From a virus: a stretch of DNA of 64,000 nt. The stretch covers positions 1 to 64,000 of the IMG/VR virus record IMGVR_UViG_3300048591_001244. One strand, 5' to 3'. Shown one piece after another: positions 39,388-64,000 of this stretch; the stretch's first letter is position 1, and every line of letters begins with the position of its first letter. Position numbers and translations under genes: made by a program. The notes below the pieces were generated by a model. It worked only from the letters and a program-made list of their open reading frames with translations, did no database searches and had not been told where the DNA came from.

Positions 39388-40205
39388 TATTGCTGCTCAA
39401 TGATAGTTTGCTGATTGGTATTATCGTTTTTAATATCGGCAATTTTTCTCTCTTCAATATTTAATTCTTTTGTCAAGATCATCATCGAAACATATTCTCC
39501 ACCCTGGAATGTCATTGGATAAGGATCATCTTCTGTCATTGGCCTACGCTTGTCTTTGAAGAACACCTTTCCCGGACCAGACCATGTTGTTGCCAGCTGA
39601 CCTATAAACGTATCTCCTGCAACATAGTTCGTTCCATCATAAGTGACAGCACCTTCAGAAACTTCATATTCTAAATCTTCCTGAATCTTTTGTTGTAAGG
39701 TATTGTCAAAGAAATCTCCATCCATAGGATTATCCAGGACAAAACGAAAATGAGCCTTATTTGGCGTTGGATATAAATAGAAGTCATCCCCTGACCTCAT
39801 GTAGTATGGAATCTTTGCTCTTAAAGAAGTGCGGTCAAGATCGAAAAAACGCTCTATTGATATACCATAGTAGGTACTATGCTGAGAAGTTCCGGAAACT
39901 CTCACCACTCCTTTATCATCAGGAAGGGAAAGGATTCTGGGAAGGACAACCTTTCCAAGTGTTATGCCACTGCAATATCCCGGCAATTCCTCTCCTGAAT
40001 CTACAGGAGTAAGGGTTCTGATTCCAAGATTCTGAATCCATACCGGATCGATATATCCCTGTCGCTGGAATGATTCTCGTTTTGACCGGGCAGCATATTT
40101 ATGAATGAGAAAATTGAGATGTGGTCTTTCTAATCTGTGGTCCTTACTGACTTTACTCTTTTCGGCAATAAGTTCTATATCTGAACGAAGCTCTCTTAGT
40201 GTCAT
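39387..40205 (-). CDS. Tail ring protein
   Basis: MTLREL...DDPYP...DIKND pattern of crAss ring proteins. Confidence 0.6.
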   Translation of the reverse strand: MTLRELRSDIELIAEKSKVSKDHRLERPHLNFLIHKYAARSKRESFQRQGYIDPVWIQNLGIRTLTPVDSGEELPGYCSGITLGKVVLPRILSLPDDKGVVRVSGTSQHSTYYGISIERFFDLDRTSLRAKIPYYMRSGDDFYLYPTPNKAHFRFVLDNPMDGDFFDNTLQQKIQEDLEYEVSEGAVTYDGTNYVAGDTFIGQLATTWSGPGKVFFKDKRRPMTEDDPYPMTFQGGEYVSMMILTKELNIEERKIADIKNDNTNQQTIIEQQ

Positions 40206-58812: not shown

Positions 58813-59148
58813 AGAATTGAAAGTACAATCAAAGTATGTCCATGAGGTCCGGCCGGTGTATATCAAGGAGGCAACGAGATCTTTCAGCTATACCACCATA
58901 CTACCGGATCCATTTCCGGTGTGCAGGTAGATATCAGGATGGTCCTTGCCCTGGCATTATCATGTGGTGCATATGCAATGATTCTTACCCATAATCACCC
59001 ATCCGGAAGGACATACCCTTCGGAAAGTGACAAAGAGATCACTAAGCAATTTGCCGATGCTGCAAAATTACACGATATCAAGATCCTCGATCATATTATC
59101 GTCTCACAAGAAAGCTATTATTCCTTCGCTGATGAAGGAGAGCTGTAA
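58802..59148 (+). pseudogene. radC: RadC-like JAB-domain gene with internal deletion and frameshift
   Basis: HNHPSG...PSESD...ILDHII...YYSFADEG in one frame; N-terminal MNSRELKVQSKYVHEVRPVY in another; junction at ~58865. Confidence 0.7.
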
Positions 59149-59640: not shown

Positions 59641-59719
59641 ATATCCAACAATCACCGCAGAAACGAAAAGCGAGGAAGCAATTATAGGATTAAAACTGCA
59701 AGACAGAAAAAATGCAAAG

Positions 59720-59844
59720 TACGTGCCGCAGCTAAACGCTGTTGGCGATTTGAAATACGAAATTATCAATCTAAAAATAAAGTAACAATGGAAAACGAAA
59801 ATTTGAATACATCAGAAGCCGCCAATAGCGATTTAGGTGCTGTT
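59720..59844 (+). repeat. attC-like hairpin 1 (left core degenerate, TAC)
   Basis: Arms 59728-59747 GCAGCTAAACGCTGTTGGCG and 59820-59840 CGCCAATAGCGATTTAGGTGC; GTT at 59842. Confidence 0.7.
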
Positions 59845-60078
59845 AGTGGCAGTAGGGATTCTCAGGAAGATTGGTATGATGATGAATATTACGAGGGACA
59901 GCCGCACGAGGATTGCCCTAAATGTGGTAGAAGCTATGACCATATTGATTTTGATTACCAAAGCTGCTCTAAATGCGGCTGGGATGCTGAAAATGAAAAA
60001 TGGACAGAAGCCCGTGAGCCATCTGATGATGATTATTTAAATGGGGGTGCGGACATTCTTACTGGAAGGTGGTATTAG
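59788..60078 (+). CDS. Cassette protein with two CxxC pairs (zinc ribbon)
   Basis: CPKC...CSKC; ATG lies in the loop of hairpin 1. Confidence 0.7.
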   Translation: MENENLNTSEAANSDLGAVSGSRDSQEDWYDDEYYEGQPHEDCPKCGRSYDHIDFDYQSCSKCGWDAENEKWTEAREPSDDDYLNGGADILTGRWY

Positions 60079-60088
60079 TATTGCCACT

Positions 60089-60212
60089 AACGTGTTTGCG
60101 CTTGGCGCAGTGGCGGATTTCGGAGCGAAAAACTTTCAAACCACCACTAAAGCTGATGCGAGGCACAATGTTGAATTAACCACTAAAACCGCCATTGAGC
60201 CAAACGCATGTT
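60089..60212 (+). repeat. attC-like hairpin 2
   Basis: AAC 60089-60091; arms 60097-60116 and 60189-60208 (17/20 complementary); GTT at 60210. Confidence 0.8.
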
Positions 60213-60386
60213 ATGCTCTCGTTGCGGTTCATTAAGCAGAACTTTCAATCGAAGCAAGGTGTTTTTAATCTTTTTTTGTGCGGTGGTCAAAAAAATATCA
60301 ACATTGAAAATCAGCACTTTAGAGATAATAATACAAATAAGTGAAAAATATTTGTAAAAATGCTTGGTGGTTACAAATAAGCGGCT

Positions 60387-60394
60387 TATATTTG
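60387..60394 (+). promoter_or_regulatory. Cassette-internal TAnnTTTG promoter
   Basis: TATATTTG with CTTG ~24 nt upstream, ahead of the ATG at 60426. Confidence 0.65.
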
Positions 60395-60425
60395 TACTGT
60401 CATTAACAATCAAAATAACAAGAAA

Positions 60426-60851
60426 ATGAAAAATTTAATCAAAAACACAATCATCAGACAAGCAATCGAATTAGGTTTTGACTTTGAACAATTCACTAAC
60501 GATGCAGATTTGCAAGAAGTAAGCGAAGCACTTATGGACTTCTTTAACGAAAATTCAGACAAGTTGCCAAAACTTGAAGATGCGTGCGAAGTAACAAGCA
60601 ACGGAAGAACACAACACGTAAGCTATGGCGATTTTTGGTCTGATGGAGAGATAGTTAATTTTTCAGACAACTGGCACAAATCACCTGAAACAAAAGTTTT
60701 TCACTCTGATTTTGTAATGGAAGATACTGACGGATTGATGAAAAATATGAACTTGTATTATTTAGTTGGCGAAACTGATTACAACGCACCTGACGGCTAC
60801 TATTACAGCAAAAGCGAAAAAAGACACGTAAAAGAAGAAGAAAATGCGTAA
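60426..60851 (+). CDS. Acidic hypothetical protein
   Basis: 141-aa ORF. Confidence 0.7.
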   Translation: MKNLIKNTIIRQAIELGFDFEQFTNDADLQEVSEALMDFFNENSDKLPKLEDACEVTSNGRTQHVSYGDFWSDGEIVNFSDNWHKSPETKVFHSDFVMEDTDGLMKNMNLYYLVGETDYNAPDGYYYSKSEKRHVKEEENA

Positions 60852-61059
60852 GATTTTTCACTTAGAAATCAAATCGGAAAGCTCCCATAAATACTACGGG
60901 AGCTTATCCGCTTTATGCTCTGAAAACCCAAATTTGGGTATTTCAAAATTCACACTTGACAGATTTGATTTTACAGAACCTTTTGAAAATGCAACTTGCA
61001 TTATCCGAAAATCAGTAATGAAAACTACTGGAAGCGTGGGAGAAAAAGTTAAATGGTAA
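60844..61059 (+). CDS. Small putative DNA-binding protein
   Basis: HKYYGSLSALC...LGISKFTL, HTH-like. Confidence 0.6.
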   Translation: MRKIFHLEIKSESSHKYYGSLSALCSENPNLGISKFTLDRFDFTEPFENATCIIRKSVMKTTGSVGEKVKW

Positions 61060-61166
61060 ATTAGAGAACAACACGAATTTAATTATTAAGTAAAAAACGC
61101 TCACTTTAGCAGTACGCCCCTGCTTTTGTATAGCGTATGTTATAGGGCGTTTTTAATTTAATCAAA

Positions 61167-61361
61167 ATGAGAACAGTAGAAGTGACAGTAACTTACAAGT
61201 ATGAGCTTGAAATTGACGACAACAACGAGATTGTCAAAGAGTATGAAAGCGAAAACGAATTATTGGTGGATTGTGCCACTTATCGTTTCTCAACAGGATT
61301 ACCTGTAATTGGTGATGGTGGGGTAAAAGTTAAGGATGTCGAATTGGTCGAGGTTTCTTAA
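61167..61361 (+). CDS. Cassette hypothetical protein
   Basis: 64 aa; bounded by inverted repeat 61139-61152 / 61360-61373. Confidence 0.7.
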   Translation: MRTVEVTVTYKYELEIDDNNEIVKEYESENELLVDCATYRFSTGLPVIGDGGVKVKDVELVEVS

Positions 61362-61370
61362 ATGCCCTAT

Positions 61371-61493
61371 AACGTAAAAGTATAAAAGCAGGTGGGGATT
61401 GAACGGCAAACACGTTTCGACTTGCACAAAACTAAATAAACAGCCGAGGTGGTTAAAAATAGCACATAACCCCACTTGATTTTATACAGTGTT
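61371..61493 (+). repeat. attC-like hairpin 3
   Basis: AAC 61371-61373; arms 61380-61397 GTATAAAAGCAGGTGGGG and 61470-61487 CCCCACTTGATTTTATAC; GTT at 61491. Confidence 0.8.
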
Positions 61494-61510
61494 GTGTGCA
61501 GTTATTTATT

Positions 61511-61831
61511 ATGTTTAAATTACATTATGCAAGTTTAGATTTAGGGAATAATGATATTCCTTGTTTTGAGTTCAAAAAACATTCTCAAATGGTTGATTTT
61601 ATTGATGAAAAATGTATCAATAGAAATGGAAAAGTTGTTTGGCTTTTGGCTAAAGAAGATTTTACAGATGTTTTTATTTCTGAAAATCATTTAAGTATTC
61701 AGGATTTTTTAAGTAAAAAAGATTGCTGGCAAACAACTGGTAATTATTTTCTTCAAGAATATACAAGTTTTGAAGATGCTTATCGTGTCGCATTAGATAT
61801 GTCAGAAATTAGTCCGCTGTGTTATTCATAA
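61511..61831 (+). CDS. Cassette hypothetical protein
   Basis: ATG at 61511; bounded by inverted repeat 61491-61505 / 61828-61842. Confidence 0.7.
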   Translation: MFKLHYASLDLGNNDIPCFEFKKHSQMVDFIDEKCINRNGKVVWLLAKEDFTDVFISENHLSIQDFLSKKDCWQTTGNYFLQEYTSFEDAYRVALDMSEISPLCYS

Positions 61832-61845
61832 TTGCACACAACATC

Positions 61846-62118
61846 ATGAACAACTATCGCTCAATTGACAAAAAAACACCTGAAGTTGTTGACAATACAA
61901 CAAATGATACATATCCTAAAACCCTATACATTCGAAATGAAGTGGGAGGAATGGTGTGGCAAGTATATCATGTTAATAACATAACAGAAGCTCTCAATCT
62001 CGTTAAAAATGCTGTTAAAAATGGATTTTATGGCAACCATACATTAGAAGACCATACAAATGAAACAGAAACATGGCCTGATTGGAGAAAAACAGCACAT
62101 CCAGACATCTTTAAATAA
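61846..62118 (+). CDS. Hypothetical protein
   Basis: In-frame ATG at 61846 of the 61819 ORF. Confidence 0.6.
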   Translation: MNNYRSIDKKTPEVVDNTTNDTYPKTLYIRNEVGGMVWQVYHVNNITEALNLVKNAVKNGFYGNHTLEDHTNETETWPDWRKTAHPDIFK

Positions 62119-62126
62119 CATAAACC

Positions 62127-62495
62127 ATGAAAATAAAAGACATACTAAAGAAATACCTTCCTTATCACATAGTAAAAGAAATAACAGAAGCTATGAAATC
62201 ACAGGGAAGAGGACACGAGCTAAATCGCTTTAATTATGCGGTAAAATCACCACATTCAATAATAGGGCTTTCATTTGAATGGGCTATAAAAAACTACTTG
62301 AATAAAAATGACATCTATAAAGATGATAGTGACTTTCAGGATATCATTATTAATTCTTTCTATAATCAACACAATGAAGAAGAAGGTCGGCTAGATGTAA
62401 ATGACAATCCCTGGAAAGACAAATTAGATTATGTACATAATCACTTCGAATTATTCTGTCAGTATGCACAAAATAACTGGAGAAAGATTAAATAA
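62127..62495 (+). CDS. Hypothetical protein
   Basis: 122-aa ORF. Confidence 0.65.
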   Translation: MKIKDILKKYLPYHIVKEITEAMKSQGRGHELNRFNYAVKSPHSIIGLSFEWAIKNYLNKNDIYKDDSDFQDIIINSFYNQHNEEEGRLDVNDNPWKDKLDYVHNHFELFCQYAQNNWRKIK

Positions 62496-62564
62496 AATAA
62501 ATTTCATCCCTCGCATCTTGGTCGGTGCGGGGGATTTATAGACGGATGGAAAACTGAAAGTAAC

Positions 62565-62960
62565 ATGATAACAGAGACAAAAGAAATATATAAGTGCGAC
62601 CATTGTAAAAAGATGTACCAAAGAAAGTCGGCTTGCATGAGGCACGAAGATGTTTGTTTTAAAAGCCCTGATTTTTTAAGACCATGCCATAGTTGCGTGA
62701 ATCTTGAAAAGAGAACCACAACCGTATTTAGCGGACGTAGTGATGAAAACGGCAATGAATATGAAATGACCGTAAACCTTATGTTCTGTAAAAAAAGAGA
62801 CTGCTTCATTCATCCACATAAAGTAGCGGTAAAGGGAAATGCTTTCGAGACTGGAGATAAAGAAAATATTGAAATGCCAAAAGAGTGTGAATTTTATGAA
62901 AATGAATATGCGTATGTGTTAAAAGACAATCTAACCCCAACCCATGAAAACCACCCCTGA
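62565..62960 (+). CDS. Cys-rich zinc-finger-like hypothetical protein
   Basis: YKCDHC...C..HE..C...CHSC. Confidence 0.7.
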   Translation: MITETKEIYKCDHCKKMYQRKSACMRHEDVCFKSPDFLRPCHSCVNLEKRTTTVFSGRSDENGNEYEMTVNLMFCKKRDCFIHPHKVAVKGNAFETGDKENIEMPKECEFYENEYAYVLKDNLTPTHENHP

Positions 62961-63405
62961 CTACTTCAACGAAATAAAATGCCCGATTGTTAGGCGCAGG
63001 GCGATAAGGAATTGCGATGAACCTGAAAAACAAGAGAGTAGTCTAAAATGGGCAATTCATGGAGGCTTCGTCTGGAGAGAAACTCCTGAAGGTGTTGCAT
63101 ACTGGAGTGAGGTTTACGAAAACCCACTCGCCCCATCCCCAGAACATCTACTACCTGATGGGTACAGGGAGGAGGCCGAGCCAAACTTGACGTTAGCAGC
63201 AGTAACGGATTTAAAAATGGAACATTCAAAACAAGAAAAAGAAATTTACGAATTAGCAGAACTTTTGATGCAGTCTGAAAACTTAGAAGCAAGTGCAACT
63301 ATCCTTCGTGATTTTGCTGAAAAATGTTACCAAGAAGGTGCAATAGATGCTCAAAATGATGCGGCAAAAGAAATACGTGAACACTATGTAGAAGGTGGTC
63401 GGTAG
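62944..63405 (+). CDS. Chimeric hypothetical protein (resident N-half plus cassette C-half)
   Basis: FVWRETPEGVAYW domain, then a cassette boundary at 63192 and an internal ATG at 63217. Confidence 0.6.
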   Translation: MKTTPDYFNEIKCPIVRRRAIRNCDEPEKQESSLKWAIHGGFVWRETPEGVAYWSEVYENPLAPSPEHLLPDGYREEAEPNLTLAAVTDLKMEHSKQEKEIYELAELLMQSENLEASATILRDFAEKCYQEGAIDAQNDAAKEIREHYVEGGR

Positions 63406-63416
63406 TTATTGCTGCT

Positions 63417-63542
63417 AACGCCCAAGCAGCTTTGCGTTCGGTGGCGTTTTTAAACCGAACGCTTCACTTAATAACAAAATTTGATATGGAAAAAAATGTA
63501 ACAACCAACACCTACCCACAGCATGACGCAAAACTGCCTGTT
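63417..63542 (+). repeat. attC-like hairpin 4
   Basis: AAC 63417-63419; GCAGCTTTGCGTTC (from 63426) pairs with GACGCAAAACTGC (to 63537); GTT at 63540. Confidence 0.75.
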
Positions 63543-63701
63543 AGCGGTAGTTATTATTGGTATTGTCGATTCACTTTCAAAGGAGATAAATGTGATTTAT
63601 ACCTTACAGAAAGAAACAACTGCAAAACATTTAAGGAACTTCGTAGATGGTGGAGAAAAGAGAAACCAAACTTAAAACTTCTGTCAGCGGTCAGGAAATA
63701 A
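63486..63701 (+). CDS. Cassette hypothetical protein, start inside hairpin 4
   Basis: MEKNVTTNTYPQHDAKLPVSGSYYWYC...; inverted repeat 63540-63555 / 63697-63712. Confidence 0.6.
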   Translation: MEKNVTTNTYPQHDAKLPVSGSYYWYCRFTFKGDKCDLYLTERNNCKTFKELRRWWRKEKPNLKLLSAVRK

Positions 63702-63709
63702 TTTCCGCT

Positions 63710-63853
63710 AACAAGCTGGTATGTGCTGTGCCAGCCACAAAATTAATAATCACGGCACTAACTTAACAGGCATAGCATATACCGTTTTCGGGCTTGGCGT
63801 TCGGTTTTGTGCGTAGGGCTTGTGGGTGGCAAAACTGACGCAAAACCCGTGTT
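63710..63853 (+). repeat. Two fused attC-like hairpins (5a and 5b)
   Basis: Arms 63718-63732/63769-63783 and 63789-63809/63830-63849; AAC at 63710, GTT at 63851. Confidence 0.75.
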
Positions 63854-63947
63854 ATATGAAGGTGGGATTTTCACGCACTACACTCGATTAGAAGCACGTA
63901 AAAAGAAAAAGAAAAAATGAGCGTGGGAAACAATTAAATCATTTAAA

Positions 63948-64000
63948 ATGCAAAAGAACATTTTATTATTTGACGTAGAAAGCACAAGTTTACACGGAAC
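63948..64000 (+). CDS. Partial DEDD-family 3'-5' exonuclease (N-terminus)
   Basis: MQKNILLFDVESTSLHG is an ExoI D-x-E motif; truncated by the window end. Confidence 0.55.
   Translation, partial: MQKNILLFDVESTSLHG

Follow-up and report, generated by a model that had tools for sequence, protein, structure and literature searches.

In the classical integron, the attC recombination site follows its gene and crossover takes place at G|TT. Here we describe hairpin sites of this general kind in a 64,000-nucleotide stretch of phage DNA (positions 1 to 64,000 of IMG/VR record IMGVR_UViG_3300048591_001244, hereafter the window), where two small open reading frames (ORFs), A and G, begin in the loop of a hairpin and run across its GTT end into the gene body that follows. 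The site appears to be linked to the gene downstream of it rather than to the one upstream.

Three described systems come close to this arrangement. Seventeen clusters of attC sites lacking an integron integrase (CALINs) have been reported in virulent phages, among them one that infects a marine Bacteroidota host; their cargo often includes DNA methyltransferases, and IntI1 recombines some of their sites (Qi et al. 2023, PMC9892861). The window resembles a CALIN in having at least two attC-like sites in a row and no integrase nearby, the sites being called by a covariance model made in this work, but genes that start inside the site were not described for the phage CALINs. In attI1, ORF-11, ORF-17 and ORF-18, together with short ORFs in attC sites, place an initiation region within the site and across the crossover point, which helps cassettes that have no signals of their own (PMC8876359). 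Those ORFs encode short separate peptides that work by translational coupling, stop in or just after the core and are an accident of the first array position. The site-borne ORF described here does not terminate at the core; it extends 53 to 316 codons into the cargo as its in-frame N-terminus, and the in-site start is the rule in the family. Finally, N-terminal fusion variants of aac(6')-Ib (aacA4) take their start and first residues from upstream of the crossover (PMC8876359), but they are sporadic, concern a single resistance gene with attI1 or a neighbouring gene as donor, and do not represent a leader module conserved as part of the site itself. In the literature we found no description of an attC-like site with a loop that routinely encodes both start and leader of its cargo, nor of cassettes with the site at the 5' end.

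The source record is 79,204 bp long with terminal repeats, and the window covers its bases 1-64000. The portal protein is distantly related to the portals of crAss-like, Flavobacterium and Cellulophaga phages, and the virus is a crAss-like phage of Bacteroidota. The window is mostly occupied by large structural genes on the minus strand, with small plus-strand genes from about 58.3 kb on. Searching the whole genome with a covariance model built from 54 relatives gave five sites, all on the plus strand and all between 59.7 and 63.9 kb. The five hairpins span 4.2 kb, and the region from 59.7 to 64.5 kb contains two short arrays of integron-like gene cassettes. The hairpin is imperfect and about 125 nucleotides (nt) long, and is composed of AAC, a long arm, an A-rich loop of about 55 nt, a short arm and GTT; the full cassette order is hairpin, 12-nt cassette-specific box GTTAnnnGCAGT, gene body and inverse box ending in AAC. 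The gene bodies are flanked by GTT...AAC inverted repeats of 10-16 nt, with GTT/AAC pairs at 59842/60091, 61139/61373, 61491/61842, 63192/63419, 63540/63712 and 63851/64526. Only perfect 10-mer pairs within the array were taken as meaningful inverted repeats; the genome-wide count of 12-mer inverted repeats was not above that of shuffles. A mismatch at position 11 is common to all cassette inverted repeats at 59842/60091, 61139/61373, 61491/61842, 63192/63419 and 63851/64526, the left end having G where the right end needs A, so that only the plus strand forms a G-T pair.

The hairpins share several features with attC. They are imperfect, with paired R and L boxes and AAC...GTT ends, and their polarity is set by arm asymmetry: the AAC-side arm is about 5 nt longer, with TCG against TG and an extra run beside the AAC, and there is an invariant G-T pair. 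They also recall the sedentary chromosomal integrons with homogeneous repeats of about 120 nt (Vibrio VCR type), in their similar length, in the recurrence of near-identical sites between unrelated cargo, in the complementarity of a cassette's first bases to its own far end, and in one-way arrays of small genes mostly of unknown function. Unlike in integrons, no IntI adjoins the array, the linkage of the site is to the downstream gene, the 12-nt end boxes have the fixed mismatch at position 11, and the cargo has its start codon and leader encoded in the loop. We identified neither attI nor Pc here, although no promoter search was made.

The hairpins of the window belong to a large family. The arms of site 5 matched at least 119 IMG/VR stretches, nearly all with an equal spacing of 103-106 nt, and those of site 0 matched 22 further stretches. 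Across 54 sites, 95% of the stem cells pair and 96% of the AAC/GTT pairs are kept, and compensatory changes occur in nine stem pairs (e.g. TTGGGG/CCCCAA, GGCGGG/CCCGCC and TGCTGC/GCAGCA). None of 500 shuffles matched the observed values, and slid controls paired in 38-44% of cells. The hairpin had no match in Rfam at the gathering score or at E≤1, and no blastn match among 50,697 GenBank phage records. No tRNAs were found.

Start codons in the hairpin loops

The preliminary description of this DNA had reported two ATGs in A-rich hairpin loops, each exactly 54 nt before a GTT and in frame into VSGS, and two cassette ORFs without an ATG of their own. The sequence and a script both bear this out. 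ATG 59788 lies 54 nt before GTT 59842 (R' box GTTAGTGGCAGT), and ATG 63486 lies 54 nt before GTT 63540 (box GTTAGCGGTAGT); both frames cross GTT-AGY-GGY-AGT to give 18 residues followed by V-S-G-S. Neither ORF A nor ORF G has any in-frame ATG, GTG or TTG at or 3' of the GTT, and in ORF A no start-like codon precedes ATG 59788 either. It is well supported, then, that both ORFs have their start codon and 18-codon leader within the hairpin, with a frame that continues through the GTT core.

Is the frame between ATG and GTT a property of these two sites or of the family? We examined 103 non-identical sites of the main family and took as long ORFs those that stay open for at least 40 codons past the GTT (96 sites). 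In 93 of the 96, this frame extends back into the site without a stop and contains an ATG there, which falls in the loop in 91; in the two other frames, used as control, 20 of 186 cases had an open ATG inside the site. Over the 15 codons that precede the GTT, the ORF frame has a single stop among 1395 codons, versus 96 and 156 stops in the other two frames (7-11%). In the site-0 family, an in-frame ATG stands at -54 in 18 of 19 sites. The idea that the ATG-GTT frame might be random across many sites, which the preliminary description had raised against itself, is therefore rejected, and the in-hairpin start pattern is confirmed to exceed chance by far. By these counts, the junction is under coding constraint. 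The spacing of exactly 54 nt holds for A, G and the frame-0 subfamilies, but other subfamilies differ, with offsets of -44, -50, -53, -62, -65 and -68 (frame 1) and -43 (frame 2). Past the GTT, 13 sites have no ATG; the first one comes after more than 90 nt in 47 sites and within 30 nt in no more than eight.

Leaders and bodies behave as modules. Between the phage contigs (labelled L001-L169; L170-L289 are bacterial genome contigs), 24 leader clusters and 47 body clusters form 59 combinations. The site 5 leader, ME[KT]NV..PQHDAKLP, heads at least nine unrelated bodies, and that of site 0, ME[HK]ENLNTEETANSDLGA, at least 14, so that the same leader is shared by unrelated proteins. The reverse, homologous domains with different leaders, had been proposed as a check and is also observed. 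The G body recurs in L001 and L002 at 72-74% identity behind two other hairpins and leaders, making three leaders in total. The GTT of L002 does not keep the codon register, and an insertion of 1 nt in the box relative to the G of the window restores the frame. A second compensation of this kind concerns one methylase body: its hairpin is of frame 2 in L113, where the box has 16 nt, and of frame 1 in L052, where the box has 15 nt. The frame across the junction is thus under selection. The largest body cluster consists of DNA methyltransferases with a DPPY motif, behind ten different leaders. Such methyltransferases are by far the commonest cargo (34 cassettes, L020-L130), and an anti-restriction role would fit them.

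The zinc-ribbon family of ORF A has 87 homologues with 13 invariant columns in the core, and it too has diverse leaders. Its short forms have their own Met just 5' of the acidic core, and its long forms have leaders of about 20 residues, one of which bears the PPDAK arm of the main hairpin family. In L152 and L153 the zinc-ribbon cassette stands behind a third hairpin variant with the ATG again 54 nt before the GTT, and in L159 it has its own ATG behind a short hairpin of a second type. Since homologues have either their own Met or diverse leaders, the leader is not needed for the fold. The residues encoded by the loop vary freely, and the conserved leader end (..DAK.. or ..SDLGA) with the following V-x-x-S is simply what the codons of the right arm and of the 12-nt box spell. 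Pfam gave no match for the cassette proteins of the window, ORF A included, and a single-protein locus search with ORF A returned nothing in IMG/VR.

Linkage between hairpin and downstream gene

To which of its two neighbours does the hairpin belong? We compared homologous bodies (at least 80% nt identity) from different contigs, each oriented by the sense of its gene. In eight pairs, from at least four independent groups, the upstream hairpin is kept while the downstream hairpin differs, and the converse was not found in any. The eight include cassette D of the window compared with L136, in which site 3 and cassette D are kept together. The blocks of homology run from the AAC 5' of the hairpin to the AAC 3' of the body. 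When the comparison starts from hairpins at least 93% identical in different contigs, only the downstream body is shared in 22 pairs, only the upstream body in one, and neither in 125. One metagenome contig keeps site 0 and cassette A and diverges after 60092. Both arrays of the window open with a hairpin and close at a bare AAC (61842 and 64526). By this linkage, the phage cassette is best described as a hairpin plus the body downstream, the hairpin being the cassette's own 5' end.

A and G would then not be start-less captives, because the 5' site that contains their start is part of their own cassette. This changes part of what had been proposed earlier, namely that the hairpin is a portable initiation module on which a start-less cassette depends. 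That the hairpin supplies start and leader stands; that the start is borrowed from a neighbour does not, in view of the 22:1 and 8:0 linkage. The further proposal that expression of such a cassette is set by whichever hairpin happens to precede it is not supported in that form, since the hairpin travels with the downstream body wherever recent linkage can be read.

These comparisons bear directly on the possibility that the classical polarity applies, with the hairpin belonging to the upstream cassette, and that A and G are start-less ORFs to which a neighbour's site happens to give an in-frame ATG. The arm asymmetry is that of classical attC, in that the arm beside the upstream gene has the extra bases, and both the 125 pairs of near-identical hairpins before unrelated bodies and the three leaders of the G body would be expected from it. 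We nevertheless regard it as unlikely, because near-identical hairpins share the body downstream so much more often than the one upstream, bodies lose the downstream hairpin and never the upstream one, with block edges at the AACs, the contig with site 0 and cassette A departs just after 60092, and arrays open with a hairpin and close without one. The 125 pairs with neither flank in common do mean that exchange at the GTT or homogenisation of hairpins must also occur. Hairpins are thus generic as well, and over longer times are either re-assorted at the GTT or homogenised in the manner of the repeats of sedentary chromosomal integrons.

Orientation, recombination and a model of the site

The hairpin family is abundant in chromosomes and metagenome-assembled genomes of Bacteroidota (Flavobacterium, Pedobacter, Chitinophagaceae, Cyclobacteriaceae and Algoriphagus) and is also found in Ignavibacteria. 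The orientation in bacteria is opposite to that in phages: flanking genes run with the AAC-to-GTT direction at 117 of 130 phage sites and against it at 80 of 99 bacterial sites. An in-frame loop ATG was found in only one of 18 long frames at bacterial sites, where the genes start beyond the site. Bacterial hairpins (L170-L289) are uniform across genera, with a median pairwise identity of 75% and a top decile of at least 90%; in 617 pairs of them both flanks are unrelated. The asymmetric stem is kept whatever the direction of transcription, and therefore the function shared by the two groups should act on DNA. This argues that the loop ATG and leader are an addition specific to the phages.

The opposite orientation also weakens the view that the hairpin works mainly as RNA, for example as a stabiliser, a translational operator or a processing site, rather than as a recombination site, and that the mosaics arose by homologous recombination in conserved arms. 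The invariant G-T wobble would favour a fold of the sense strand, the arms are conserved enough to act as homology, and most of these phages have no recombinase. However, features shared by hairpins that follow the genes in phages and oppose them in bacteria cannot serve one role in mRNA. Furthermore, each body has its own 12-nt inverted boxes that end exactly at GTT and AAC, as for a circularising unit, the breakpoints fall at the GTT/AAC ends and not within the arms, and there is no matching Rfam family. We consider this explanation still less probable than that of classical polarity. That the loop ATG is unused, with a frame left open by the composition of the loop, and that A and G are unexpressed remnants or start at rare codons, is very improbable: although A and G are known from sequence alone and the loop part of the leader varies freely, stops should be common in A/T-rich loops yet are 100 times rarer in the ORF frame, frame-restoring indels exist, and both bodies are conserved proteins with no other start.

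Four metagenome runs matched small shares of the window, in assembled contigs only. One contig of 250 nt corresponds exactly to 59842-60091. Further matches cover 59726-60092, 60088-60214 and 61379-61493, begin at 63192 or extend up to 63420, with contigs unlike the window beyond, and site 1 is carried between other flanks. We infer that exchange occurs at the cassette ends (GTT/AAC). In a related complete phage genome (L167; G003:C1:45996-49448), a 263-residue tyrosine recombinase of the Xer type ends the array in the array's orientation, and this enzyme is a candidate recombinase for the system. No relative of it was found in the genome studied here. The TIGR02249 integron-integrase model stayed below cut-off in all 15 site-bearing Bacteroidota genomes, with matches that skip the IntI insertion. 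Because no recombinase is encoded here or in most of the relatives, recombination at the hairpins can only be inferred.

Then, what would a hairpin of this kind do at the head of a gene? We think it likely that it is the 5' recombination-type site of the cassette and that it supplies the cargo with a translation start and a leader. Bacteroidetes mRNAs have no Shine-Dalgarno sequence; secondary structure and a small number of upstream nucleotides tune their initiation (Baez et al. 2019, PMC6847099). The median distance of the loop ATG is 40 nt from the left stem before it and 29 nt from the right stem after it; the 25 nt upstream of the ATG are 78% A+T and 48% A, and none of 91 sites has a Shine-Dalgarno-like motif. 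In the folded mRNA, the arms would expose the AUG in an open, A/U-rich stretch free of Shine-Dalgarno sequence, as Bacteroidota ribosomes use, and therefore the site could serve as a built-in translation start. Translation would begin at the loop ATG and pass through the right arm, melted by the elongating ribosome, and the GTT core into the body, so that the protein would consist of an 18-residue leader encoded by the site, V-S-G-S and the body. At the DNA level, the hairpin would act by analogy with attC as a single-strand recombination site with exchange at the AAC/GTT ends, and would remain joined to the downstream gene. A small recombinase of the Xer type may act in trans, since the genome encodes none.

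A number of observations speak against this reading or limit it. The translation start was read from the sequence, and the matches in the runs are to assembled contigs only. The frame of ORF G also contains TTG 63432 and GTG 63441 in the left stem. By itself, site 5 folds no better than shuffles (z -0.59) and draws its support from the family; covariation, in turn, cannot separate a DNA fold from an RNA fold. The linkage result comes from about six independent groups, next to the 125 pairs in which near-identical hairpins head unrelated bodies. No tyrosine recombinase (PF00589) is present in the 79-kb genome, and one was found in only three of 30 site-bearing phage records, 27 being without.

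It is possible, with somewhat less than even weight in our judgment, that Bacteroidota phages run an inverted form of an integron-like system of their hosts, in which the site is a ribosome landing pad that needs no Shine-Dalgarno sequence and carries a generic leader. In such an inverted system the cargo gene faces the other way, which puts the folded site at the 5' end of the gene, and any in-frame sequence behind the GTT would be translated at once. The site would then be an engine to express, shuffle and possibly create small phage proteins, e.g. anti-restriction methylases.

If a folded recombination site does double as a protein-coding module that starts translation, gene mobility would be coupled directly to expression in phages of hosts that make no use of Shine-Dalgarno sequences. 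Accessory genes, many DNA methyltransferases among them, could then be swapped without losing their expression. Both the sites and the N-termini of hundreds of phage proteins would be annotated wrongly by gene callers and integron finders. The reversed orientation of the hairpins on bacterial chromosomes suggests that Bacteroidota and their phages have in common a cassette system not described so far.

Neighbouring features

The coordinates of hairpins, ORFs and cassettes are collected in Table 1.

Table 1. Hairpin sites, cassettes and site-borne ORFs of the two arrays
Feature	Position	Strand	Description
Hairpin site 0	59716..59845	+	Arms CTAAACGCTG / AGCGATTTAG; first site of the array; loop ATG 59788; covariance model 39.1 bits, DNA fold z -2.5
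ORF A	59788..60078	+	96 residues: 18-codon hairpin leader, VSGS (R' box), zinc-ribbon core CPKCG..CSKCG
Cassette A body	59842..60091	+	Inverted repeat GTTAGTGGCAGT / ATTGCCACTAAC
Hairpin site 1	60085..60213	+	Covariance model 60.6 bits, fold z -2.1
Cassette C	61139..61373	+	Own ATG 61167; only a right-arm remnant upstream
Hairpin site 3	61367..61494	+	Divergent family member; covariance model 18.6 bits, fold z -2.2
Cassette D	61491..61842	+	Own ATG 61511; its AAC ends the first array, no hairpin after
Cassette F	63192..63419	+	Own ATG 63217; also fused in frame to upstream ORF 62944-63405
Hairpin site 5	63413..63543	+	Arms CTTTGCGTTCG / TGACGCAAA; loop ATG 63486; covariance model 87.4 bits
ORF G	63486..63701	+	71 residues: 18-codon hairpin leader, VSGS, small basic Cys-rich body without Met
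Cassette G body	63540..63712	+	Inverted repeat GTTAGCGGTAGT / ATTTCCGCTAAC
Composite site 6	63713..63854	+	Short second-type hairpin 63713-63783, then short-loop main-family member 63777-63854

Just 5' of the array, at 58921-59148, lies a protein with a RadC-like JAB domain (E 8e-26). The box on the AAC side of site 0 is degenerate, with GTAC in place of TAAC, and this may mark a docking junction. The covariance model also gave a match at 39397-39489, which was weak and partial (E 0.006) and was dismissed.

Site 1 has no loop ATG that is open as far as the GTT. Its core is preceded by CATGTT, in which ATG 60208 overlaps the G of the GTT at 60210 and opens a 49-codon frame, MLCSRCG... (60208-60357); an ATG at -2 was found in several further sites. 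The GTT of site 1 is also the beginning of a conserved module of about 30 nt that starts with GTTATGCTCTCGTTGCGGTT (60210-60240) and occurs as well in L146 and L113, following three different hairpin types. In the window, the GTTATGCTCTCGTTGCGGTT module heads a larger unit from 60210 to about 61140, with two genes that have their own starts.

Upstream of cassette F, only the right-arm remnant GAGCCAAAC precedes GTT 63192, and the upstream gene reads across this GTT into the cassette as an ORF of 153 residues. Similarly, in L157 a zinc-ribbon cassette is fused to an upstream ORF of 40 residues. As to the earlier proposal that the module could promote the birth of new genes from captured fragments, the two cases show only that fusions at the junction occur.

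In the composite site 6, the second-type hairpin GCTGGTATGTGCTGTGCC ... GGCATAGCATATACC is inserted between AAC 63712 and the short-loop hairpin of the main type, and a loop ATG is absent from both. Cassette H follows; its own ATG is at 63948, and its end at 64526 lies beyond the window. The second-type hairpin alone precedes the own-ATG cassette of L159.

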